Shown here: piece after piece, positions 11,556 to 47,203 of the stretch | How the letters are laid out: every line of letters begins with the position of its first letter | How positions within the stretch are numbered: the stretch's first letter is position 1 | Source: an uncultured Dehalococcoidales bacterium | GTDB taxonomy: Bacteria > Chloroflexota > Dehalococcoidia > Dehalococcoidales > UBA3254 | Length of the DNA: 64,000 bases | Assembly: GCA_964386535.1 (NCBI GenBank) | Contig: CAYLRY010000001.1 | Coordinates: 3,830 to 67,829 of the forward strand | Reading direction: 5' to 3' | Notes under the pieces: model-generated | The model's database searches: none | Seen by the model: the letters and a program-made list of their open reading frames with translations, nothing else | What the model was told of the DNA's origin: nothing | Program-made: the position numbers and the translations under genes

Positions 11556-12830
11556 TTATTCAGCCGGATTCATAACTCTTCCCACAAAGAGAACGGCGCC
11601 GGTCTGGATATCCCGGATGAGGAAGATAAAAGGCCTGTCCATAGTAAAAGCCACGGGTTGAGCAGGTGCGGAGGTCAAACCAACAATCACGGCGGTAGCT
11701 GCGGCAGCCTCGGTACCATCTTCGTCTACAGCTACGAAAGCCTTATGGACGACATCCGTAATCATCAAATCGCGCTTGCCGTTCATACCAGAGAAATCCG
11801 CATCTTCAGTGAAAGCCACCGGCATGCCCATAGCGCCGAGCGTAGGTTTAAGACCGAACTGAGAGTCGAATTTGAATTTGGGCATGGTCAAATTGACTGA
11901 CTGAGATTTCAGGCTCTTTATAACGGCCTGTACCGTTTGTCCGCTGAGTGTTGATTCAAAGGAGGTGAACTGGCCGCTTTTGGGCAGCAATACCACCATG
12001 GAAAGCTCGCGGCCGTCATAGGGGATTTCCACCGCCTGGTAGTTATCACCTGCGGCATATCCGTAATTCTTGTTTTGCTTCATCATGGGTACAGAGACAC
12101 TATTCCCGTTTAATAGATTGAAGGTACCGCTGGCGGTGGCGCTTTTCTCAAAGCGGTTTTGCCAGGCCGCATTAAAATAGATGGCATTGGTCAGCACCAG
12201 CCGCGTAACAGGGCTGATGGAGCCCTGCGGAAGCAGGTCCTTGATCCTTTGCTCAGTCTGATCACTGACCCACTGGTTGATGGTCTGGCGGGAAGGCTCA
12301 GGTGAATTTTTAAAGTCCAGCACCCTGAGCCCGGCGCCGTAGTTTTGCGCCAGCAGATCAAGATAGTCCGAGATAAACTTGTAGTCCTGCTGTCCCCAGA
12401 TAGCGTTGACTATATTAAGCCGGAAGCCCTTTTCGTCTTTACCCTGGGCCGCCTGTCCCCTTTTAGACAGTTCCAGGTCCAGTTTATTAAAGGCCGAATG
12501 TAATTGGGTTTGCGCCAGGATAAAATGCAGGGTCTCCGCCATCTGTTTTTCTGTGGTACCGCGGGCTCCGCCATAGGTCATGGCCAGTGCTTCAGAAATA
12601 CTATAAGGTGAATAAAAAAAGTTTTCGTTCTTATCTTTCAGCGCCTGATAAAGGTTGAAAGCGAAAACGGTATTGCCGTCTACCAGGCTGGTCAAATCGG
12701 TTGGATTAACCACAGGGGCAGTTTCTCTGGGTTTATCTGATTTAAGCTCGCCGGCGGATACCGGCCCGCCGCAGGCTGCCAGGCTACTCATCAGAACGGC
12801 TGCCAGAATGAAAAATAGAAATTTTTTCAT
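11556..12830 (-). CDS. Serpin (serine protease inhibitor), secreted lipoprotein
   Basis: Signal plus lipobox (SLAAC). Hinge DEDGTEAAAAT, a reactive-centre loop, then the FTMDRPFIFLIRD...G.VMNP serpin C-terminal signature. Confidence 0.9.
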   Translation of the reverse strand: MKKFLFFILAAVLMSSLAACGGPVSAGELKSDKPRETAPVVNPTDLTSLVDGNTVFAFNLYQALKDKNENFFYSPYSISEALAMTYGGARGTTEKQMAETLHFILAQTQLHSAFNKLDLELSKRGQAAQGKDEKGFRLNIVNAIWGQQDYKFISDYLDLLAQNYGAGLRVLDFKNSPEPSRQTINQWVSDQTEQRIKDLLPQGSISPVTRLVLTNAIYFNAAWQNRFEKSATASGTFNLLNGNSVSVPMMKQNKNYGYAAGDNYQAVEIPYDGRELSMVVLLPKSGQFTSFESTLSGQTVQAVIKSLKSQSVNLTMPKFKFDSQFGLKPTLGAMGMPVAFTEDADFSGMNGKRDLMITDVVHKAFVAVDEDGTEAAAATAVIVGLTSAPAQPVAFTMDRPFIFLIRDIQTGAVLFVGRVMNPAE

Positions 12831-12915: not shown

Positions 12916-12946
12916 GGCGTCATGCCGGGTCACCCGGCATGACGCC
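12916..12946 (-). terminator. Rho-independent terminator of the SDR gene
   Basis: GGCGTCATGCCGG-gtcac-CCGGCATGACGCC, followed on the minus strand by a T5 run. Confidence 0.75.
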
Positions 12947-14803: not shown

Positions 14804-16729
14804 CTATACTGCCAGCCCCCTTTGCGCCAGATCCTGTGCCACCTCATTTAACTTCAGTTCGTTCAGTTTAGCTTTAGTGGGATACCCGGTCTCAACATCC
14901 CAGCCCCGCAGACGGTAGTATTCGGTTTTCATGTCTTCGAACTTCTGACGGTCGAGTATACTGCCTGTGCGGGAAATTATGGCTCCTCCGGGGCCCGGCA
15001 TAATGGCCTCAGGATTAAAGAAGACCTCACCAGGCTTCATGGGTTCATCATGAAAATAATCCAGAACGGTATCATCCCGGCGGCCCCGCCAGCCCAGCCG
15101 GAGCTGAACAGCCCTTTCCAGGTTACAGATCCTTTCCCCGATTTCAGCCAGGCCGGCTTCATCCGTCTCTTTGCCAGTAATAGCCGAAAAAATCTGGTTT
15201 TCCAGAGTGGGATCACCCACATGTTCGCCCGGAGTGTTGATGGCCATCATGGGCCACATTAGATCACAGAGGATCAGGCTTTCCTTGGCGTATACCCGGT
15301 CCTGGATTTTTTTAGCGGCCAGGGCCTTTCCTTCATAGGTAGAAAAATCTGCAGCTATTTCACCGCCCCAAAATCTTCCGGCGGCTTTCCGGATATCATC
15401 ACTGTTAAAAAAGGCATTGGGCATGTTACGTGCCCAGTTAAGCCAGCTCATGATGGGAATACTGACACCGTGGAGCTGCTGGATGGGACGGCGGGGTTCT
15501 GTGGCATACAGCAGGCCCGTGGTAATGAAAAGACGGGGGTCGTAGTCCTTAGCTTCCCCGGCACGGGTGGCTACAAATTTAGATACCAAATCTTTAGCCC
15601 GGGGGCCAATTTCGGCAGCGGCTTTATCGAGACCCTGTGCCAGGACGGCTCCAAACCCCTGCCGCAAGGCTATCATGCGGGTTAAAATTTCTATAAATTC
15701 GGCGCTGCCGGCCCTGGAAAAAGGCAGTCCGGTCTCCTTTTCTGTGATCAAGCCCTGTTTATAACATTCGATGACCCAGAGCACCAGGGGGGCCATAACC
15801 CCGGTATCCAGGCTGTAGCCGTCTACCAGCCGGATGCCCCTTAACTCAGCGTCATTCCAGCCGCCATGATAATCCCGTGAGGGCTGTTTATAAATACTGG
15901 TAGCCTGACAGAAAGACTTGTATTTCCGGTTGTTTTCACCGGGATACATTTGCCGGGAACAGCCGATACCGCAACCATAGCATTCTTCGGTAACTGTGAG
16001 GCCGGCGATGCCCCAGGGAGAAGGGCGGCCGGAGGGAGAACCACGCAGAGTCTTGATTTGATTTATTATTTCCCCCAGCCTTTCAGGATCAGCAGCAACC
16101 GGCTTTTTACTTCCGGCAGCCACAATAGCCTTCAGGTTTTTGGAGCCCATAACGCCACCCAGACCTCCTGAGGCAGAGGCTATTTCATCAGCGGACACAG
16201 TGGCAAAGACTACCTGGTTTTCACCAGCCGGGCCGGTGGTAAGAATACTGATCTCAGACCCCAGTTCAGCCTTCAGAAGGTCCATGGTATCATAAGTTGA
16301 TTTACCCCACAGTGATGCAGCATCTCTGATATCCACCTGACCATCGTGAATAAAAAGAAAGACCGGCTTATCAGCCTTTCCCTGGACAGCCACGGCATCA
16401 AATCCGGCAGCTTTCAGAGCGTTACCCCATTTACCGCCTCCGTTGCCGTAGGAAAAGGCCTCCGGGTTATTGTTGGGTGATTTTCCGCAGACCTGCCAGC
16501 GGCTGCCGGCCACCCCGATGAAACCGGTGGTAGGACCGGTAACAGCCAGAAAGCAGTTATCCGGTTCCAAAGCTTTCGCTTCAACCGGTACCATATCCCA
16601 GAACAGTTTCGCGGCAAAACCTCTCCCGCCCAGAAAGCGTTCTGTATAGTCTGCCGCAGGCAGGCGCGTGATTTGATTGTCTGACAGGTCTACCTTCAGT
16701 ATTTCTCCGGCATAACCGTATTCAGCCAT
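14804..16729 (-). CDS. Aldehyde:ferredoxin oxidoreductase (tungstopterin AOR family)
   Basis: N-terminal YAG.ILKVDLS... and AOR family similarity throughout the 641 aa. Confidence 0.9.
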   Translation of the reverse strand: MAEYGYAGEILKVDLSDNQITRLPAADYTERFLGGRGFAAKLFWDMVPVEAKALEPDNCFLAVTGPTTGFIGVAGSRWQVCGKSPNNNPEAFSYGNGGGKWGNALKAAGFDAVAVQGKADKPVFLFIHDGQVDIRDAASLWGKSTYDTMDLLKAELGSEISILTTGPAGENQVVFATVSADEIASASGGLGGVMGSKNLKAIVAAGSKKPVAADPERLGEIINQIKTLRGSPSGRPSPWGIAGLTVTEECYGCGIGCSRQMYPGENNRKYKSFCQATSIYKQPSRDYHGGWNDAELRGIRLVDGYSLDTGVMAPLVLWVIECYKQGLITEKETGLPFSRAGSAEFIEILTRMIALRQGFGAVLAQGLDKAAAEIGPRAKDLVSKFVATRAGEAKDYDPRLFITTGLLYATEPRRPIQQLHGVSIPIMSWLNWARNMPNAFFNSDDIRKAAGRFWGGEIAADFSTYEGKALAAKKIQDRVYAKESLILCDLMWPMMAINTPGEHVGDPTLENQIFSAITGKETDEAGLAEIGERICNLERAVQLRLGWRGRRDDTVLDYFHDEPMKPGEVFFNPEAIMPGPGGAIISRTGSILDRQKFEDMKTEYYRLRGWDVETGYPTKAKLNELKLNEVAQDLAQRGLAV

Positions 16730-16840
16730 TTTTCTCCTCCTCGAATTAGTGGTAAGTATTCCTCTCTCAGTGGCGCTATTTTAAGAGGAATTATTGTGAA
16801 ACCATAACCAAAAACCAACGGCATAGGCCTCCGGTTACCT

Positions 16841-17344
16841 TTATTCCACTTTTTTATACATGTTTGAGCTGGAACCACATACCGGACATTTAACCGGTAT
16901 TTCCCGTACTGCCAGATTCCCACAGGAGTGACATACGAAGTAGGTATCAGGAGAAACCGGCGTTCCGTTTTTAATACTTTGCAGGGCTTTTTCAAATTGA
17001 TCGTTGTGGGTTTTTTCCGCTTTATCGGCATGGTCGAAGGAAATTCTGGCGCGTTCATTTCTTTCGATAGTAGCCTGCTCTGTAAAACCCGGATAAACGC
17101 GGGTTATCTCGTAATGTTCGCTGGTGGCGCCTGCCAGCAGATTATCTTTGGTGGAGCCGATTCCGCCCATGACCTGAAAATGGTTCCTGGCATGTACCAG
17201 TTCAGCTTCAGCCACTGCTCTGAATAACCTGGCATATGCAGGTAAGCCTTCGTTTTCAGCTTTGGTAGCAAAAAAAGTATAGCGGACATAGGCCTGACAT
17301 TCATTAGAAAAAGCAGATTGCAGGTTGCCTTCGGTTTTAAACAT
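16841..17344 (-). CDS. Rubrerythrin
   Basis: Diiron four-helix E..H motifs plus a C-terminal rubredoxin-like CxxC...CPVC. Confidence 0.9.
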   Translation of the reverse strand: MFKTEGNLQSAFSNECQAYVRYTFFATKAENEGLPAYARLFRAVAEAELVHARNHFQVMGGIGSTKDNLLAGATSEHYEITRVYPGFTEQATIERNERARISFDHADKAEKTHNDQFEKALQSIKNGTPVSPDTYFVCHSCGNLAVREIPVKCPVCGSSSNMYKKVE

Positions 17345-17453
17345 ACAACATCTCCTGATTTTTAGATTACCGGTAAACGTTTTAAGGGGATATCTGCCAG
17401 TTTCAGTAAGTTATAGGCTATTATACGGCAAATCAATCAAATAAGGAAACCGC

Positions 17454-17482
17454 TTGACAAAAGGGGTTTTATCATTTAGTAT
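17454..17482 (+). promoter_or_regulatory. Sigma-70-like promoter for the ERF gene
   Basis: TTGACA at 17454-17459 and TAGTAT at 17477-17482, with a 17-nt spacer. Confidence 0.55.
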
Positions 17483-17505
17483 ATAAGAACAAATGTTCTT
17501 ATATA
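17480..17505. promoter_or_regulatory. LexA/SOS (Cheo-type) box
   Basis: TATATAAGAAC-AAAT-GTTCTTATATA: perfect 11-nt inverted arms around a GAAC-N4-GTTC core. It overlaps the -10 element. Confidence 0.65.
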
Positions 17506-17541
17506 CTTTACTTGAAATTATCAGTTTAAGAGAGGTAGTCA

Positions 17542-18177
17542 ATGGAACAGAGCATGAATATCAGCGAATTAGCCAAAGCCCTGAATAAAATGCAGGGAGA
17601 ACTGAAAACAGTTTGCCGTGACAAGATTAACCCCTATTTTAATTCAAAATATGCGGACCTTTCCGCTATCTGGGATGCCTGCCGCAAACCCCTGGCGGAT
17701 AACGGTTTAAGTCTTATACAGACTACAGACAGGGTAGGCGAGGATATTGTTTTAGAAACACTGCTTTTACATGAGACCGGTGAGTGGATCAAAGGTAAAC
17801 TGCCGATCAATGCGGTAAGAGACGAGCCTCAGGCTATCGGCTCGGCAATATCGTATGCCCGCCGCTATGCCATGTCTGCCATGCTGGGTATTGTATCTGA
17901 CGAGGATGATGATGCCGAGTCTGGGGCCGTGCATCAGGCGCGCCGGAGTAGCAGCCAATATCAGGGCATGCCACCAGCAGTTGAGAAGAAAGACGGTATT
18001 CCCCATAACGGTAAAATAACCGCCGAGCAGATAAACCTTTTGGATAGTTATAAAAAAGCCGGTTATAATATTGCCGAAAAGGTGAAGAAATACGGCTGGC
18101 AGGCGGAGAAAATAAATGATTTTACTTACGAACAGGCCAGGAGGCTGATCAACGAATTTCAGTTTGGACACAATTAG
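17542..18177 (+). CDS. ERF-family single-strand annealing (recombination) protein
   Basis: L..AL.K.Q.EL......N.....KYADL N-terminus, a GSAISYARRYAM..MLGI..DEDDD core, and an acidic/unstructured C-terminal half. Confidence 0.85.
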   Translation: MEQSMNISELAKALNKMQGELKTVCRDKINPYFNSKYADLSAIWDACRKPLADNGLSLIQTTDRVGEDIVLETLLLHETGEWIKGKLPINAVRDEPQAIGSAISYARRYAMSAMLGIVSDEDDDAESGAVHQARRSSSQYQGMPPAVEKKDGIPHNGKITAEQINLLDSYKKAGYNIAEKVKKYGWQAEKINDFTYEQARRLINEFQFGHN

Positions 18178-18296
18178 AAAAGCCGGTGGCGCGGCACCAT
18201 TTAAAAATACCCGGATACTACCCCTGAGGTTTTCAGGTCTTTTATGATTGTTCAGGGCGTGCCATCCGGACTGATTTAAGAGCTGGTAGTCCCAAA

Positions 18297-19556
18297 TTAA
18301 TCCAGTTTTCTTAAATGGGGCACAAAAATGAAAGTTACAGCCGAGATGAAAGTCAGGATTATAGCAAAGCTGCCAATAACCCATTGAACAGGCAGAGCCT
18401 CCACCATGAGACCCGCTACAAAGGCAAACAGACTGACCACACCCCATTCGAGCATAAGAATACTCATTACCCTTCCCATAAACCTGGGTTCGGTATAACT
18501 CTGCAATAAAGCGCTGCAGACTGTCCCCACTGTCTGACCGAGTCCCGCGAAGATAAAAAACATCATTGAAAGGTTCATGGAGGTTGAAAAAGAAAAGCCA
18601 ATCATTGAAAGGCCGGAAATAAGGCCGGTCACGATCAGCATAATCCCGCGTTTTTTCCCGCTCAGAGAGGCCATGATCAGGGAACCCACCAGCGCTCCGG
18701 CCCCGGAGACGCTGAGCAATAACCCCATTGCAGTGGCGCTGACTTTGAGAATATCATCTATAAAAATAGGCAACAACTGCTGCTGGCCGGGCATAGCCAG
18801 CATAATTACCACCAGGTTAAAAAGCAATACAAATAAAATGGTTCTGTCTTTACGCAGATAGTCCAGACCCTTCCTGATATCCCCCAGAATGTTGGCTCCG
18901 CTTTTTTCTATACGGCTGGTGTGCGGTACAAATAACAAAAAGACGGCCGCGTAAAGATTAAGACTGCCAATGGTCAAATAAACAGCCTGGAAATCAAAGG
19001 CATCGATTAAAAACCCAGCCACCCCAGGGGCTGCCAGACGTAAAACGTTCATTCCCAGCACGTTCAATGCTACGGCATTCATAGCCTGATCGCGGCTGAC
19101 TATTTCAGGGATGATGGACTGGCGCGCGGGTAATAATATACCCATGATGATTCCCTGCAGCAGTGAAGTGCCTATCAGTATCCAGGCTGAACCCGAATTC
19201 TCCCGGCTGATAATGCCAGCCATCAAGGCATAGGCAATGCCGAAAGAAACGGCTGTTGAGAAAAGCAGGCTGTATATCAGAACCCATTTTTTTTGCATTC
19301 TATCTGCAATGGCGCCTCCAAAGAGGGAGAAGATGATCATGGGAACAGCAAAGGTCAGAGCCATAGTGCCCAGCAAGGCGGATGAGCCGGTCACCCGGTA
19401 TATTAATAGAGATCCGGTGACTATCTGCATGTTCATGGAGGCAAATTGCCCCAGCATTCCCAGAAAATACAGGCGGTAGACCGGATGACGCAGAGAGCTG
19501 AAGGTCCGCAGGCCGATGGCGGTTAATAAATTGGGTTTATGAATTTTTTCCTGCAA
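18297..19556 (-). CDS. MFS transporter (paralog 1 of a tandem triplet)
   Basis: 12-TM pattern. Highly similar to the two upstream paralogs (..YRLYFLGMLGQFASMNMQ..GGAIADR..). Confidence 0.9.
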   Translation of the reverse strand: MQEKIHKPNLLTAIGLRTFSSLRHPVYRLYFLGMLGQFASMNMQIVTGSLLIYRVTGSSALLGTMALTFAVPMIIFSLFGGAIADRMQKKWVLIYSLLFSTAVSFGIAYALMAGIISRENSGSAWILIGTSLLQGIIMGILLPARQSIIPEIVSRDQAMNAVALNVLGMNVLRLAAPGVAGFLIDAFDFQAVYLTIGSLNLYAAVFLLFVPHTSRIEKSGANILGDIRKGLDYLRKDRTILFVLLFNLVVIMLAMPGQQQLLPIFIDDILKVSATAMGLLLSVSGAGALVGSLIMASLSGKKRGIMLIVTGLISGLSMIGFSFSTSMNLSMMFFIFAGLGQTVGTVCSALLQSYTEPRFMGRVMSILMLEWGVVSLFAFVAGLMVEALPVQWVIGSFAIILTFISAVTFIFVPHLRKLD

Positions 19557-19702
19557 TTTACTGATGCCTATTGTTAAATCCTTTTATCCGGAATTTCCGA
19601 TTTTTAAATATCGAGTTATCAACAAATCCAAATATAAAACATCATAACACGTCTCAATATCAGGCGATATTCCATTTTAAAGGCGATTTCACTTTTAAGG
19701 GA

Positions 19703-20959
19703 TTAATCCAACTTTCTAAGACGTGGTGAAAAGGCATAACTTAAAAAGGTGACAGCCAGCAGCGCAATCGCAAATCCCCCCACCACCCATTGTACCGGAA
19801 ATACTTCAGCCAGCATGCCGGCCATGAAAGTACATAGACTGACGACGCCCCACTGCATCATAAAGATGCTCATCACACGTCCCATATAGCCTGGCTCGGT
19901 ATAAGACTGAAGCAAAGCACTGGAGATGGTCCCACGTATAGTTGAGCCCAGACCTACGAATATAATAAAGACCAGGGATAGTGACCAGACGGAAGAGAAG
20001 GCGAATGCGATCAGGGACAGGCCGGAAACCAGACCTCCAATCAATAGAACCAGCCCGCGTTTCCTGTTTGGCAGAGCAGCCATAAGCAGCGAACCTACCA
20101 GTGCTCCAGCGCCGGAGACGCTGGAAAGCACCCCCAGACCGGTGGCGCCGACATGTAAGATATCATCTACATAAATGGGCAACAACTGCTGATAAGGCAT
20201 GGATAAAACTACCACCAGCAGTGTAAAGCCCAGAACCAGAAGAATAATACGGTCCTGGCGGATGTAGCGGTAACCCTCTTTGATATCATTCAAAATGTTA
20301 GAACTGCGGGTAATTACAGGAGAGGTATGCCGGATAAAGAGCATAAAAATGATAGCATAAACATTTAACCCGCCCATGGTAAAGAAAACGGCTTTAAAAT
20401 CAAAAGCATCCACCAGGAAGCCGGCCACAGCCGGCGCTGCCAGGCTCAGCACATTCATGCCGAGCATATTTAAGGCCACTGCATTCATCGCCTGGTCACG
20501 GCTGGCTAATTCCGGTATAATGGCCTGCCTGGCCGGCATGGTAATACCAAGGATAGTGCCCTGGAGAACTGAAATCAGGATTAAGATCCACCAGGATCCT
20601 TCATTTTCCTTGCTTATTATCCCAGTATATAAAGCGGTGGCAGTGCTGAAAGAAATCACTGCCGAACAAACCAGGGAGAATACCAGGACACGTTTTTTTT
20701 GAACGCGATCAGCAATAGCTCCGCCGAATAAAGATAATATTAAAGTAGGTATTGCCTGGGCCAGAGACATAGTTCCCAGTAAAGCGGACGATCCGGTCAA
20801 CCGGTAAATCAGCAATGAGTTGGCTATCATCTGCATATTTACAGCAGCAAACTGGCCCAGCATACCGAAAAAATAAAGGCGATAACCCGGGGATTGCAAT
20901 GAACTGACCGTTTTCAAACCAAAAGCATACAGGATGTTTTTATTGTTAGATGATTTCAA
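19703..20959 (-). CDS. MFS transporter (paralog 2)
   Basis: Same architecture and length (418 aa) as its neighbours. Confidence 0.9.
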   Translation of the reverse strand: MKSSNNKNILYAFGLKTVSSLQSPGYRLYFFGMLGQFAAVNMQMIANSLLIYRLTGSSALLGTMSLAQAIPTLILSLFGGAIADRVQKKRVLVFSLVCSAVISFSTATALYTGIISKENEGSWWILILISVLQGTILGITMPARQAIIPELASRDQAMNAVALNMLGMNVLSLAAPAVAGFLVDAFDFKAVFFTMGGLNVYAIIFMLFIRHTSPVITRSSNILNDIKEGYRYIRQDRIILLVLGFTLLVVVLSMPYQQLLPIYVDDILHVGATGLGVLSSVSGAGALVGSLLMAALPNRKRGLVLLIGGLVSGLSLIAFAFSSVWSLSLVFIIFVGLGSTIRGTISSALLQSYTEPGYMGRVMSIFMMQWGVVSLCTFMAGMLAEVFPVQWVVGGFAIALLAVTFLSYAFSPRLRKLD

Positions 20960-20976
20960 TTAATGAATCCTCTTCC

Positions 20977-22236
20977 TTAATCTACCTTCCTGAAACTGGG
21001 GACGAAAATCATGGCCAGGAGGGTCAGGAAGAGAAGCAAAAAAGCCAGACTGCTGACCACCCACTGCACCGGCATGAATTCAGCCATGATGCCGGCAAAA
21101 AAGGTAACCAGGCTGACGATACCCCATTCCATCATTAATATACTCATCACCCTTCCCATATACGGACCTTCCACATAGGTCTGCAATAATGCGCTGCTCA
21201 GGGTATTGCGCATAGTTTGACCGACGCCTAAAAATACCATAAAAAACAGGGAAAGCGTCCAAACAGTTAAGAAGGAAAAGCAGACCAAAGCTATGCCGGA
21301 GACAAGGCTGCTGGTGAGTAATAAAAGCCCTCTTTTCCGGTTAGGCAGGGTAGCCAGCACCAGGGAGCCCACCATTGCGCCGGCCCCGGAAACGCTTAAC
21401 AGCAGTCCCATGCCGGTAGCGCCTACTTTAAGAATATCGTCAACAAAAATAGGCAGCAATTGCTGGTATGGCATTGAAAGGACAACAGCGACCAGAGCCA
21501 GTCCCAAGATAAAAAGAATGGTCTTTTCTTTCAGGACGTATTTAAAACCTTCTTTTATATCACTTATTATATTATTTCCGCGGTTGGAGATATGACTGGT
21601 ATGGGGTACAAATAAAATAAAGAGCGCTGCATACAGGTTAAGTCCACACATGGCAAAATAAATAGATTTGAAATCGAATGCATCAATCAGGAATCCGGCA
21701 ACGCCAGGGGCCAGAAAGCGCAGGACATTCATACCCAGTGTATTTAAGGCTACGGCATTCAAAGCGCCTTCACGGCTGACAATTTCCGGTATAATAGATT
21801 GCCGTGCCGGCATCATCAGTCCCATTATGGTACCCTGCAAGAACGAAGACACCATGAGAATCCACCAGGAACCCTGTTTGTCTTTACTGAGTATTTCCAG
21901 CATCAAAGCCAGGCCTATTCCCAGTGCAACCACGGCTGAGCAAAATAAACCCAGCATCAGCACCCGTTTTTTCTGCATCCTGTCAGCCAGGGCGCCGCCA
22001 AAAAGGGATAAGAGGAGCATGGGACAGGCGTTGGCCAGAGACATGGTACCCAAAAGAGCGGAAGAACCGGTAAGGCGGTATATCAATAATGAGCTGGTTA
22101 CCTGCTGCATATTCATGGAGGCAAATTGCCCCAGCATACCCAGGAAGTAAAGACGGTAGACCGGATTTTGTAAGGAACTGAAGGTCCTGATGCCCAGGCT
22201 GGCGAATATATTTTTATGACCTTCGCTGTTGTTCAA
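20977..22236 (-). CDS. MFS transporter (paralog 3)
   Basis: Same architecture (419 aa). Only 17 nt separate it from paralog 2. Confidence 0.9.
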   Translation of the reverse strand: MNNSEGHKNIFASLGIRTFSSLQNPVYRLYFLGMLGQFASMNMQQVTSSLLIYRLTGSSALLGTMSLANACPMLLLSLFGGALADRMQKKRVLMLGLFCSAVVALGIGLALMLEILSKDKQGSWWILMVSSFLQGTIMGLMMPARQSIIPEIVSREGALNAVALNTLGMNVLRFLAPGVAGFLIDAFDFKSIYFAMCGLNLYAALFILFVPHTSHISNRGNNIISDIKEGFKYVLKEKTILFILGLALVAVVLSMPYQQLLPIFVDDILKVGATGMGLLLSVSGAGAMVGSLVLATLPNRKRGLLLLTSSLVSGIALVCFSFLTVWTLSLFFMVFLGVGQTMRNTLSSALLQTYVEGPYMGRVMSILMMEWGIVSLVTFFAGIMAEFMPVQWVVSSLAFLLLFLTLLAMIFVPSFRKVD

Positions 22237-22408: not shown

Positions 22409-22451
22409 AAAGTCCGCCGGTCAGAGCCTCTGCTCTGACCGGCGGACTTTT
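22409..22451. terminator. Rho-independent terminator (bidirectional shape)
   Basis: AAAGTCCGCCGGTCAGAGC-ctct-GCTCTGACCGGCGGACTTTT, directly downstream of the minus-strand CDS ending at 22464. Confidence 0.7.
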
Positions 22452-28202: not shown

Positions 28203-28240
28203 ATATAGAAGAGAGCGTGGAATACCGCTCTCTTCTATAT
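28203..28240 (+). terminator. Hairpin terminator candidate
   Basis: ATATAGAAGAGAGCG-tggaatac-CGCTCTCTTCTATAT, 53 nt after the stop of the hydrolase gene. Confidence 0.55.
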
Positions 28241-28357: not shown

Positions 28358-28723
28358 ATGATTTCCGAAGACGAAATAGAGCTCTTTAAATTAAAAGCTG
28401 AAATAAGCAAAACCTTCTCTGATCCCAAAAGGTTGATGATAATAAATGAACTGCGTCATGGAGAAAAACAGGTGGGTGAACTGGCTCAGGCCCTGGAGAT
28501 CTCCCAGGCGGAAATATCCCGTCAACTGGCCCTTCTGCGCAGCAAGGGCATAGTGACTCCCCGCAGAGAGGGTACCAGCGTATTTTACAGTCTGGCTGAC
28601 CTGAAAATAATCGAAGCCTGTGATCTGGTCCATGAAGTATTAGTCAACCGGCTGGCAAAAAGCCGTGAATTTGCTGAAAAGATGGTAAATATTACTCATT
28701 TCAGGAGTAAGGGAATAAAGTAA
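28358..28723 (+). CDS. ArsR/SmtB-family transcriptional regulator
   Basis: FSDP.RL.I...L..GE..V.EL......SQ..ISRQL..L: a winged-HTH ArsR pattern. Confidence 0.85.
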   Translation: MISEDEIELFKLKAEISKTFSDPKRLMIINELRHGEKQVGELAQALEISQAEISRQLALLRSKGIVTPRREGTSVFYSLADLKIIEACDLVHEVLVNRLAKSREFAEKMVNITHFRSKGIK

Positions 28724-31870: not shown

Positions 31871-31873
31871 TCT

Positions 31874-31930
31874 CCAGCCAGCCAGAAACTGTTTACAGTT
31901 TCTGGCTGGCTGGATCTGACATTTTTTTGC
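31874..31930 (+). terminator. Rho-independent terminator
   Basis: Perfect 18-bp stem CCAGCCAGCCAGAAACTG-ttta-CAGTTTCTGGCTGGCTGG, followed shortly by a T7 run. Confidence 0.8.
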
Positions 31931-34373: not shown

Positions 34374-34458
34374 TTACCAACAAAGGTTTATTCAATAGCT
34401 TTGGTAATTGCGCCCAAAGTGGAGAATTAGCCTGAAAAGGAAAGCGTATTTGAGTGAT

Positions 34459-35313
34459 ATGTTAAGGCATACCTTTATTCATGTACCAGGGATCGGGCCT
34501 GCCACCGAACGGCGGATCTGGTTATCCGGATCAGGTACCTGGGAAGATTTTTTCCGGAAACGTCAGCTCTGCCACCTGCCGGGGTCGATGCAAAACAGGA
34601 TCACGGGCTGTCTGGAGGAATCGGTTGCGGCGGTAAAGGGCGCTGATTATCGCTATTTTGAAGCTTTGTTGCCTGCGGGAGAAATGTGGCGTCTTTATGG
34701 AGAGCTCAGGTCAAACACAGCTTTCGTGGATATTGAGACTACTGGTCTGTATGCCGGCCCAGGCTCGATTACCCTGATAGGCTTATTTAACGGGTGGGAA
34801 ACCAGGGTATTTATCCAGGGTATTAATCTTGAAGAATTCAATGAAGAGATAAAAAAATACCGGCTTATAGTCACTTTCAATGGAAAACGGTTCGACGTTC
34901 CTTTTATCCGTGAGGTGCTGGGTGATTTGCCGGCTGGAATCGTTCATCTGGACCTGATGTATCCTTTGAGACGTCTGGGATACAGGGGAGGGCTCAAGTC
35001 CATTGAGGCGCAACTGGGAATTGGCCGTGAAGGAATCCTCAGGCAGGTGGATGGTTTTATAGCTGTACTTCTCTGGCACGAATATAAAAGGGGTCATAAA
35101 GGAGCGCTGGATACCCTGATTCGCTATAACCTGGAGGATGTAGTCAATCTTCAGTTTCTGGCTGACCATGTTTATAATAAAAGCATTTCCGGACTACCGG
35201 TAACCGTTGAATCTTTACCGGAGCCTGAGAAATGGCAGTTAGATAATATGCCTTATGACGAAGAACTGGTAGAATATTTACTTAGACAGATGCAGGAACG
35301 ATGGTCAGAATGA
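34459..35313 (+). CDS. RNase H-like (YprB/DEDD exonuclease-fold) domain protein
   Basis: AFVDIETTGL motif followed by ..TFNG..FD.PF... The ATG at 34459 is preferred; the ORF is open from a TTG at 34408. Confidence 0.7.
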   Translation: MLRHTFIHVPGIGPATERRIWLSGSGTWEDFFRKRQLCHLPGSMQNRITGCLEESVAAVKGADYRYFEALLPAGEMWRLYGELRSNTAFVDIETTGLYAGPGSITLIGLFNGWETRVFIQGINLEEFNEEIKKYRLIVTFNGKRFDVPFIREVLGDLPAGIVHLDLMYPLRRLGYRGGLKSIEAQLGIGREGILRQVDGFIAVLLWHEYKRGHKGALDTLIRYNLEDVVNLQFLADHVYNKSISGLPVTVESLPEPEKWQLDNMPYDEELVEYLLRQMQERWSE

Positions 35314-40101: not shown

Positions 40102-41361
40102 TCAGTAGACGCCGTATTCCTGAGTAAAGTCAATCATAGCTTTCAGATTTTCCGGTTTTACCTCGTCAGTGGAACTTCTGGGAGAGAGAATAAAACCACC
40201 ACCTTTACCCACCACATCAATAAGTCTTTTACAGTAGTCTTTGATATCCTGTACACTGCCCACCTGCAAAAGGGTGGAGGGCACATTTCCCTGGATACAG
40301 ACATGGTCTTTTAGGATTTCTTTGGCCTTAAAAATATCCGTAGTATCCAGGCGGGCCAGGATTTTACCTTTAGGAAACTCCAGCAAGTAAGACAGCCGGG
40401 AGGTGAAATTCCCCTCGAAGAAGATACAGGGCGTGGCCCCCCTATCAATAAGTGTTTGTACCAGTTTTTTAAAGGTAGGCCAGTAAAAGGTATCGAAATG
40501 CTTTGGCGAAAGGAAATCATCAGAGCCGCGTGTATTGGTCATGAAAATCCTGATATTGCCCATTTTAGTCGGTTTCGGCATGGGTCTGGCCAGGGTTAAC
40601 TCCAGAATTTTTTCACAAGCCTGGAGCACTTTTTCCGGCCTGCGGTACATATCCGTCATGGTGCCGGTCATACCTCGCATGGAATGTGAGATAATATCGT
40701 AGGGCGGCAGTGCGGAGCCCTGGAAATATTGGGGAAAACCCATTTCCTGCATCATGAGATCAAACTTTTGCATCCTGGCCTGCCATCTGCGGATTTCGCG
40801 GCCGGTCTTTTGTAAAGTACGGATGGCCAGAGAGGCTTCCGGCGATGTCAGAGCTACTGCCAGCGTCTGGGCTCCCATATGTCCGGATAAACCGGAGAGT
40901 TTGGGGAGAGAGGCCAGTCCGGCCAGATTTTTACTCGAACGTGATAAGTGAATACGGAACATATAGTCCGAGGGGTCATTTAGAAAAGCATCATAGTCCT
41001 CTGCCTGCATATAATCCACTTCTATAGACTGATGACCATGATAGGGATTTAATCCGTACCCCGGCCAGCGCAGTTGTTTGGGATCCAGGTATTCCAGGGC
41101 TTTACCAGGCGTGAAGGCCTGATGAAAAATCAGGTCAGCGGGGAAATCAGAGAGGGTTTTTTTATAAGCTGCAAACCAGGCTTTATAGTCATAATAAGCG
41201 GCAGAAAAAGGAATACCGGTATATTTAGCAGGGAAATAACTCATGCCGCAAATGATGGGTACACGGTCAGGAATGCGAAGCTGGATGGCGTCTGTAATGC
41301 GTTTTTCTCTTTCATAGCGTAGTTCTTCAGGTGTTTTCTTCTGCCCGGACGTTTTACTCAT
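40102..41361 (-). CDS. URO-D-family protein, paralog 2 (shorter form, 419 aa)
   Basis: Collinear similarity to 914-2251 and 45833-47203 (..DRVP.., ..LRWPGYGL.., ..DMYRRPEK.., ..FYWP..KK.., ..GGGFIL..EYG.Y). Confidence 0.75.
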   Translation of the reverse strand: MSKTSGQKKTPEELRYEREKRITDAIQLRIPDRVPIICGMSYFPAKYTGIPFSAAYYDYKAWFAAYKKTLSDFPADLIFHQAFTPGKALEYLDPKQLRWPGYGLNPYHGHQSIEVDYMQAEDYDAFLNDPSDYMFRIHLSRSSKNLAGLASLPKLSGLSGHMGAQTLAVALTSPEASLAIRTLQKTGREIRRWQARMQKFDLMMQEMGFPQYFQGSALPPYDIISHSMRGMTGTMTDMYRRPEKVLQACEKILELTLARPMPKPTKMGNIRIFMTNTRGSDDFLSPKHFDTFYWPTFKKLVQTLIDRGATPCIFFEGNFTSRLSYLLEFPKGKILARLDTTDIFKAKEILKDHVCIQGNVPSTLLQVGSVQDIKDYCKRLIDVVGKGGGFILSPRSSTDEVKPENLKAMIDFTQEYGVY

Positions 41362-45832: not shown

Positions 45833-47203
45833 TTATTTTCTGTAAGTCCCGTACTCTCTGGCAGCTTCCAGCATTGCCTTTACATTTTCCAGCCTGGGTT
45901 TATCCGGTGTACAACCGGCACCCAGGGTGTAGCCGCCGCCTTTGCCGCAGACCTCGATCAGTTTGCGGCAGTATTCCTTAACAGCCTGCGGAGTACCGGT
46001 GGCAATTAGTGAAGAAGGAACATTACCCTGCATACTGCATTTTTCGCCCAGTATCTTTTTCGCCCTGGCCATATCGGACTGGTCAAACCACCAGGTCAGG
46101 GCGCCTTTGGGGAAGACGTTCATAGTTTCCAGGCGGGAGTCGAAACAACCTTCGGCAAACAAACTCACCATCAAACCGTCATCCATTAAAGCCTGCATGA
46201 TCTTTTTCAGGGTAGGCCAGTAAAAGGTCTCAAACTGCTTCTGTGACATCCAACCGTCAGCGCCTTTATGCAGAGGGAAAGTAACAATATGCATATTGGA
46301 GATATTATTATGGTTCAACATGGAGGCAATGGTTATATCCGCAATGACATCCATGGCTCTGAGTAATTTGTCAGGACAGCGGTACATGTCCATCATAATA
46401 CCCTGGGTGCCCCGGAGTGTGTCTCCAATGATATCAAAAGGCGCTTTGCAAAAAGCCCCCATATTGATAGGGAAACCTGAAGCAGGCCCCAGCCTGGCAT
46501 AATCATCAGTGATTTGCTTCCGTCTTTGCAATTCTTTACCGGCATCCAGCATTCTTTGCAGGGTATCCTGGACCTGCGGGTCAGCCAGGGGCATGATATA
46601 GGTGGAGGGCATTTCAATAATATCGGTTAAAGGGGCGAACTGACGGAAGCTCTGACAGGAGCCGAAAACCCGGGGAAGATAAGTTCTAAACCAGAAATCC
46701 GAAGGATCGCGGATAAGGGCGTCATATTCGTCTACCCCCATATACTCCGCTTCGACAAACTGGAATCCGGGAGCATCAATAGAGAGCCCGTGCCCTGGCC
46801 ATACATACAGTTTATAATCCAGGATTTCCAGGGCTTTCCCCGGCGTAGTAACCGGGCTGACAAAGACCTCCAATTCGGCTGAGTAGCGGTCATTAAATTT
46901 CCGGCAGGCCTGGAGAGCTTTATCATAATCATACATGGCGGTATTGACATTGATGCCTCCATAAATGAAAGCTAGATTACCAATAGGCACCTGAACCGGC
47001 ACCCTATCAGGTTCCTTAAGGTTATAGACATCCACGTACCTTTGAGCTCTGGTTTTGTAGGCTTTTTCTGCTTCGGGGCTGATAAAACGGATGTTTTCGG
47101 GATTTACAAATTTGTTAAGCCGGTATTCGCGTCTTTGTTCACGCGTCATCTGCGCCCAGTTGGGCGGTAATCCCGCCCTGTTCCCTGTAACATTTTTCAT
47201 CAC
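45833..47203 (-). CDS. URO-D-family protein, paralog 3 (long form, 456 aa)
   Basis: Closest to paralog 1 over its full length. Confidence 0.75.
   Translation of the reverse strand: MMKNVTGNRAGLPPNWAQMTREQRREYRLNKFVNPENIRFISPEAEKAYKTRAQRYVDVYNLKEPDRVPVQVPIGNLAFIYGGINVNTAMYDYDKALQACRKFNDRYSAELEVFVSPVTTPGKALEILDYKLYVWPGHGLSIDAPGFQFVEAEYMGVDEYDALIRDPSDFWFRTYLPRVFGSCQSFRQFAPLTDIIEMPSTYIMPLADPQVQDTLQRMLDAGKELQRRKQITDDYARLGPASGFPINMGAFCKAPFDIIGDTLRGTQGIMMDMYRCPDKLLRAMDVIADITIASMLNHNNISNMHIVTFPLHKGADGWMSQKQFETFYWPTLKKIMQALMDDGLMVSLFAEGCFDSRLETMNVFPKGALTWWFDQSDMARAKKILGEKCSMQGNVPSSLIATGTPQAVKEYCRKLIEVCGKGGGYTLGAGCTPDKPRLENVKAMLEAAREYGTYRK

Follow-up and report, generated by a model that had tools for sequence, protein, structure and literature searches.

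The ERF-family single-strand annealing proteins of phages, for which Erf of Salmonella phage P22 is the prototype and to which Gp77 also belongs (PF04404), consist of an N-terminal domain, an acidic linker and a variable tail, and their genes sit in packed early operons, typically flanked by a gp157-like gene and SSB and without a promoter or Cheo box of their own. Here we describe a gene for a protein of the same family and the same layout in a 64-kb stretch of DNA from an uncultured Dehalococcoidales bacterium, a stretch which we call the window throughout. Unlike the phage copies, this gene is monocistronic and isolated, in a piece of chromosome that carries no other phage genes, and its promoter is overlapped by a long palindrome centred on the Cheo-type LexA motif GAAC-N4-GTTC. 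On the sequence evidence we lean, by a modest degree, towards regarding it as a lineage-specific annealase of phage derivation that has been kept as a stand-alone, LexA-repressed unit.

Several known systems share parts of this arrangement. In the Cheo-box LexA regulons of Bacillus subtilis and Dehalococcoides ethenogenes, GAAC-N4-GTTC likewise lies over the promoter, whereas for the window gene membership of such a regulon is assigned by motif; to our knowledge no annealase is listed in either regulon, and a limited literature search for Erf or another annealase under an SOS box gave nothing on point. Temperate-phage genes that are controlled by host LexA are familiar from tum of coliphage 186 and from the lytic promoter of Bacillus phage GIL01. 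A LexA box has also been predicted at a RusA-like gene in C. difficile (PMC4234289). All three examples put a gene of phage derivation under the direct control of the host's SOS repressor, as is proposed here for ERF, but host-LexA-controlled phage genes trigger induction in a functional prophage, whereas the window has no prophage and the product controlled would be a recombination protein.

Phage-type annealases that are retained in chromosomes or mobile elements, as ERF is in the window, include RecT/RecE in the cryptic Rac prophage of E. coli and Bet/Exo of SXT, the latter under SetR with an indirect SOS response. They differ from the window gene in having a recognisable backbone of prophage or integrative conjugative element, a partner exonuclease, and element repressors rather than a LexA box of their own. 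In Deinococcus, DdrA is damage-induced, under DdrO/IrrE rather than LexA. It is a chromosomal, Rad52-like protein of an annealing family (PMC515370). DdrA resembles the role proposed for ERF in that a protein of the single-strand annealing superfamily is kept as a damage-induced host gene, and differs in belonging to the Rad52-like branch and in being conserved across its genus, where the window ERF is confined to one lineage. Both the protein and the operator at our locus are familiar, then; the combination is not, and neither is the lineage.

An intact ERF gene in a transcription unit of its own

The product of the window gene matches the Pfam ERF family (PF04404) over residues 11-136 with an E value of 6e-24 and 85.2 bits against a cut-off of 25, and two PHROG families, 2324 (E 1e-42) and 155 (E 2e-41), whose annotation is 'Erf-like ssDNA annealing protein'. 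By sequence comparison it also matches the solved relative Gp77 (PDB 9y6u/9y9c) at E 7e-19 over residues 7-128. The N-terminal annealing domain occupies approximately residues 1-136 and is followed by an acidic linker, DEDDDAE, and a C-terminal tail. In a 22-sequence alignment with its relatives the protein keeps 28 of 28 invariant columns, among them N30, P31, Y37, W44, the GSAxxYARRY block and the DDD acidic run. The open reading frame (ORF) thus belongs to the ERF family, as an earlier note on this DNA had proposed; it is in every one of these respects an intact and ordinary member, and its product is predicted to anneal single-stranded DNA. Its composition (GC 0.469, and 0.509 at third codon positions) is close to the window means of 0.478 and 0.511, and its codon fit, ranked 50 among 54 window genes, is host-like and not distinguishable from that of the other 53.

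The gene is preceded by a promoter, TTGACA-17-TAGTAT, that matches the sigma-70 consensus at 10 of 12 positions and is overlapped by the palindrome, both as the earlier note had it (Table 1). That note gave the inverted repeat around GAAC-N4-GTTC as perfect over 11 nt; its perfection and its centre hold, and the arms are longer, perfect over 14 nt, or over 13 nt when the spacer is read as N4. The palindrome takes in all but the first base of the -10 hexamer and spans the expected transcription start, so that a protein bound to it would be expected to exclude RNA polymerase. With a ribosome-binding site and a terminator-like hairpin at the other end, the promoter and ERF form a complete one-gene transcription unit; the minus strand has a hairpin call as well, at 18184-18199.

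Table 1. Positions of the ERF gene and its control elements in the window.
Feature	Position	Strand	Basis or remark
Likely rubrerythrin -10, TATAAT	near 17422-17427	minus	read by eye
-35 hexamer, TTGACA (consensus)	17454-17459	+	unchanged in 97.7%-identical strain contigs L240-L242
-10 hexamer, TAGTAT, spacer 17 nt	17477-17482	+	unchanged in L240-L242
Perfect palindrome, AGTATATAAGAACA-AA-TGTTCTTATATACT, 30 bp, predicted LexA-type operator	17478-17507	no strand	inverted-repeat search
Cheo-type core, GAACAAATGTTC (GAAC-AAAT-GTTC)	17487-17498	no strand	sole exact copy in 64 kb
Ribosome-binding site, GAGAGG	17530-17535	+	6 nt 5' of ATG (17542); read from sequence
Gene for ERF-family single-strand annealing protein	17542-18177	+	211 aa; Pfam, PHROG, alignment
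Terminator-like hairpin, CCTGAGGTTTTCAGG, then T-rich tail	18223-18247	+	ends one-gene transcription unit

Of 100 simulated windows, just 2 contained a perfect inverted repeat whose arms reached 14 nt or more. Copies of the core with one mismatch are at the level of chance (18 in the window against 18.0 expected), and no further full or half site was found in the 64 kb. As DNA, the palindrome has a hairpin z-score of -5.2, and a search for Rfam families gave no match. We considered the possibility that it acts as an RNA hairpin or terminator and rejected it, since the predicted transcription start lies inside the palindrome and no T-run follows it on either strand. A PerR- or Rex-type operator for the divergent rubrerythrin-AFOR operon was also considered. 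It was dropped because the consensus sequences for these repressors do not fit the palindrome, and because the site lies on the -10 and start of ERF and, judged by eye, some 55-85 bp upstream of the likely rubrerythrin -10.

The window has four other long palindromes just 3' of gene ends (12916-12946, 22409-22450, 28203-28240 and 31873-31914), each arm being 15-20 nt in length. They are GC-rich and look like the stems of strong intrinsic terminators, although the one at 28203-28240, which also precedes the gene for an ArsR-type regulator (28358-28723), could instead serve as an operator. The ERF palindrome is unlike these four in being AT-rich and in lying on a promoter rather than at a gene end.

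The extended box is used at SOS promoters elsewhere

As for the host, the window PstB shares 83-84% identity with proteins that bear the name 'Dehalococcoidales bacterium', and its every named match is from Dehalococcoidales, Dehalococcoidia or Chloroflexi; the named matches of AFOR are likewise of Dehalococcoid type or from Chloroflexi, except for one from a Syntrophorhabdales metagenome-assembled genome at 64% identity. In Firmicutes and Actinobacteria the LexA motif is GAAC-N4-GTTC, and variations on it are reported from Chloroflexi (PMC4951493, citing Fernandez de Henestrosa 2002). The report for Chloroflexi comes from one species, Dehalococcoides ethenogenes. With a Dehalococcoidales host and motif variations reported for Chloroflexi, the earlier note's description of the core as the LexA box of Gram-positive bacteria and Dehalococcoides-type Chloroflexi fits, and a LexA of this lineage may recognise the same motif.

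To ask how the long form of the box is used, IMG/VR was scanned for ATAAGAAC-N4-GTTCTTAT; the control was a palindrome of equal base composition in permuted order, ATAAGACA-N4-TGTCTTAT. Neither overlap with long ORFs nor the presence of a second box nearby separated the extended-box set from the control set, and a test of neighbouring gene families was used in place of raw counts, taking distinct ORFs that start at most 150 nt from a box. Those that flank the extended box include Peptidase_M78/ImmA-IrrE proteins (6), YolD-like proteins (4) and Y-family polymerases (3), or 13 of 51, and the ORFs that flank the control palindrome include none of these families (0 of 55; Fisher p 3e-5, or p 0.005 for YolD and polymerase alone). 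Operons of Y-family polymerase and YolD are canonical LexA targets in Bacillus. Moreover, a 20-mer of the window, ATAAGAACAAATGTTCTTAT (17483-17502), is found exactly in two viral contigs, L158 and L164, 5' of YolD genes and directly after a TATAAT-like -10. The extended form of the box is in use at SOS promoters elsewhere, and because the same form is used there, the length and AT-richness of the arms do not speak against LexA. The ERF unit thus combines the motif, its overlap with a promoter and a form of box that is used at SOS genes; its place in a LexA regulon is predicted from the motif, and the palindrome remains a putative operator.

Two further observations came from the same scan. 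In contigs L131, L154 and L164, tandem Cheo boxes surround the -10 (TTGAAT-box1-TATAAT-box2; for example at L164:3440-3492) 5' of genes for YolD-like or small WYL-like proteins, and they offer clean examples of SOS promoters with a double operator, from phages that are uncultured. The control palindrome, for its part, is present in L184-L237, often as two nearby copies, and adjoins genes for HicA toxins (9), XkdF-type proteases (8) and portal proteins (6); it is probably the mark of a single phage family that has its own conserved palindrome.

Phage origin and isolation in the chromosome

The nearest relatives of the window ERF outside a tight clade at 83-87% identity sit in phage modules and place its origin clearly in phages, as far as sequence and gene context can tell. 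In the 67% identical relative P0005 an SSB gene directly follows ERF, in P0006 (64%) a Prim-Pol gene follows it, and the contig of P0012 (61%) also carries genes for head closure, tail completion, Dam and HNH. ERF is in mid-operon in Bacillus phages phi4B1 and Silence, Streptococcus phage 315.4 and Staphylococcus phage EW, where it is usually flanked by SSB and a gp157-like gene. In a survey of the 160 nt upstream of 117 other ERF loci, neither GAAC-N4-GTTC nor a palindrome of at least 9 nt was seen, a result of little weight since the majority of those hosts make no use of the Cheo motif; the four Firmicutes phages were therefore also checked, and no Cheo box was found up to 3 kb upstream of their ERF genes.

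Essentially all window ORFs of at least 90 aa were scanned with Pfam, and those left unmatched were then scanned with PHROGs. ERF has the divergent rubrerythrin-AFOR operon on one side and, on the other, three MFS_3 transporter genes that are convergent with it, in agreement with the placement between rubrerythrin and MFS genes that had been noted earlier. No integrase, terminase, capsid, tail, lysis or phage repressor/immunity gene was found among the scanned ORFs, so that the isolation first claimed for at least 15 kb on either side extends to the whole 64 kb. There is no tRNA in the window, and no transposase, inverted terminal repeat or target duplication was found. As for att-like direct repeats flanking ERF, which the earlier note had named as evidence that would tell against domestication, none was convincing: only short repeats at chance level were seen, one of them inside the rubrerythrin coding sequence. 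None of the marks of a prophage or integrated element for which we looked (element genes, a tRNA or att repeats, deviating composition) is present.

Retention within the species

The divergent arrangement of rubrerythrin and ERF, with the same 197-nt spacer, is present in five metagenome contigs from five samples, which are all of those that span the site. Two of them (L001 and L002, from Logan) encode identical proteins, and the others (L240-L242, from JGI) are collinear with the window at 97.7% nucleotide identity. No change separates these strains in the -35, in the -10 or in any part of the palindrome, against changes at nine other intergenic positions, two of which abut the right edge of the palindrome (17508-17509); this conservation of the operator is suggestive, not significant. 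Over codons 1-79, the comparison of ERF with L240 gives 6 synonymous changes and 1 non-synonymous change, that is, 0.118 per synonymous site (pS) and 0.005 per non-synonymous site (pN), a pN/pS of ~0.05. ERF is under purifying selection, on what is a small sample. Synonymous divergence from L240 is about six times higher in ERF (0.118, over 17542-17778) than in rubrerythrin (0.018, over 16844-17344; Fisher p 0.0125), a difference that could be due to allele exchange or to stronger codon constraint on rubrerythrin.

Another metagenome, JGI 3300075153, holds three distinct ERF variants (P0002, P0003 and P0004) that are 83-87% identical to the window ERF. Their contigs are short and break off 110-190 nt upstream of ERF; at 200-400 nt downstream, on the same strand as ERF, lies a gene that differs from one contig to the next. 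These variants may be orthologues in sister species, and AFOR likewise has an 83% relative, or they may be the sign of a moving cassette. The phage contig with the 61% relative, P0012, comes from this same metagenome. A metagenome scan with ERF gave only relatives of up to 54% identity, and a scan of the species representatives with the neighbouring AFOR protein, for empty or occupied sites, gave no result.

How the unit might work, and what counts against it

In the mechanism that we favour, a phage ERF gene would have become separated from its phage recombination/replication module and persisted in one Dehalococcoidales lineage, where a near-consensus sigma-70 promoter would drive it. A LexA dimer on the single GAAC-N4-GTTC operator, over the -10 and start, would block RNA polymerase until DNA damage led to RecA-stimulated self-cleavage of LexA and freed the promoter. 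ERF would then be made and could anneal complementary single strands exposed by host nucleases, with the result either that breaks or gaps are repaired by single-strand annealing or that incoming DNA is recombined. The function had been described earlier as RecA-independent, and this fits only the annealing step, as induction through LexA would itself need RecA. That the lineage has gone as far as to recruit the phage gene into its own LexA regulon as a working, damage-induced gene for single-strand-annealing repair is a more demanding proposition, to which we would give something short of an even chance.

A number of observations weigh against a LexA-repressed annealase that serves its host. 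In IMG/VR the raw count of the extended box is not enriched over the permuted control (57 against 54 contigs). The window has a single site, and its exact 12-nt core, present in one copy, is expected 0.68 times per window, which is not significant alone. At 30 bp and without a mismatch, the palindrome surpasses typical LexA sites in both length and perfection and could belong to some other dimeric repressor. Neither lexA nor recA nor any other SOS gene is among the scanned ORFs of the window, and no partner exonuclease lies near ERF, the closest nuclease-like gene being that for an RNase_H_2-fold protein (34408-35313), 16 kb away. Conservation of the operator is seen only between strains that are 2.3% apart, and the probability that 9 substitutions would miss 36 constrained bases by chance is ~0.16. 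No ERF of more than 53% identity is present in 185,579 species-representative genomes, and two relatives whose AFOR is 69-72% identical keep rubrerythrin-AFOR without an ERF alongside; on the other side of that operon they have a GGDEF/HD gene or a radical-SAM gene, and synteny is broken. With ERF absent from these distant relatives and from all species representatives, any role in the host would be recent and dispensable. The differing neighbours of P0002-P0004 also count against domestication.

The term 'domesticated', which the earlier note had used, therefore describes only part of what is seen. It suits a gene that is fixed in the five contigs, is under purifying selection, has host-like codons and possesses its own promoter and terminator; it does not suit one that is lineage-specific and absent in relatives. 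Conservation at the same locus, which that note had proposed as a check, holds likewise within the species and is not seen beyond it, either in the relatives identified through AFOR, where synteny is broken in any case, or among the species representatives. In sum, the sequence observation made there is confirmed and the interpretation put on it is partly supported.

Alternative explanations

Among the rival explanations, the one that deserves most attention, although we consider it unlikely, is that the palindrome is the operator of a different repressor, either a CI/Cro-type or LexA-like S24 protein of a phage elsewhere in the genome or an unrelated host regulator, and that ERF is the promoter-proximal survivor of the early operon of a deleted prophage. 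ERF is, after all, clearly phage-derived, as the contexts of P0005, P0006 and P0012 indicate, the 30 bp of perfect symmetry exceed the 14-16 bp that LexA needs, the link to LexA draws on sources outside this genome, and the box counts in IMG/VR are not above the control. Yet an exact Cheo core sits at the centre of symmetry in a taxon that is reported to use variations of this motif, and canonical LexA targets stand behind the same sequences, YolD behind the identical 20-mer and Y-family polymerase behind the extended box. Phage immunity operators, moreover, usually come in sets of two or three, and here there is no second full or half site; nor is there another prophage remnant in the 64 kb, and the PerR and Rex consensus sequences do not fit.

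Another explanation would be that ERF is a neutral leftover or 'moron' of illegitimate recombination that has no role in the host, with a palindrome and promoter match that carry no regulatory meaning. Its lineage-specific distribution, its absence beside rubrerythrin-AFOR in relatives and the fact that the core motif alone is expected by chance are all what such a leftover would predict. We nevertheless find it improbable, given an intact reading frame that keeps all family-invariant residues, the preponderance of synonymous over non-synonymous substitutions (6 to 1), host-like codon usage, the presence of ERF in 5 of 5 metagenome contigs that span the site, a unit complete with promoter, ribosome-binding site and terminator, and palindrome arms of a length that was so seldom reached in the simulations. 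A cassette of promoter, box, gene and terminator that is mobile, or often exchanged, among Dehalococcoidales genomes or phages would account for the three 83-87% copies in JGI 3300075153, each with a different downstream gene on a contig that breaks off shortly upstream, and the roughly sixfold synonymous divergence of ERF over rubrerythrin fits allele exchange. We think this slightly more improbable still, as no transposase, integrase, inverted terminal repeat or target duplication was found, the location is identical in all five contigs of the species, and the three variant contigs could represent three related species.

If LexA does not control ERF, the gene is an ordinary prophage leftover. 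Should the more demanding proposition prove correct, that ERF has been recruited into the LexA regulon of its host as a working repair gene, it would be a LexA-controlled analogue of Deinococcus DdrA and, as far as our literature search shows, the first annealase that is directly LexA-controlled. Control by LexA would reveal a simple route from a phage recombination gene to a damage-inducible repair function, in which the gene is cut from its operon, gains a strong promoter and comes under the SOS repressor. It would add a single-strand-annealing protein to the functions that the SOS response can recruit, extending the SOS paradigm rather than overturning it, and would provide a first point of entry into the SOS regulon of uncultured Dehalococcoidales. 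It is also an intriguing possibility that a host-adapted annealase could serve for recombineering in organohalide-respiring Chloroflexota, which are hard to manipulate genetically.

Other features of the window

Beyond rubrerythrin, AFOR and the MFS genes, the window encodes HD-domain and URO-D-like proteins, ABC and TRAP transporters, acyl-CoA dehydrogenase/ETF, a serpin, SDR, glutaminyl-cyclase, beta-lactamase-fold and ArsR/MarR regulator proteins, and the Pst phosphate-transport system. The MFS_3 genes directly downstream of ERF are three tandem paralogues (EntS-like, 418-419 aa; 18297-22236, minus strand) with stretches of DNA that are ~77% identical, and look like a local triplication. 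On the other side of ERF, a 42-aa ORF between rubrerythrin and AFOR, assigned to no family, overlaps the start of AFOR (16696-16840 in the window; 4520-4648 in L001) and is present in both Logan contigs, L001 and L002.

Three further paralogues share a URO-D-like, methyltransferase-type C-terminal domain (884-2251, 40102-41361 and 45833-47203) and, together with the many MFS exporters and oxidoreductases, suggest an island of methyl or aromatic-compound metabolism. Finally, the serpin, at 11556-12830 on the minus strand, is full-length and secreted (Pfam E 3e-122), in what is a Dehalococcoidales genome.

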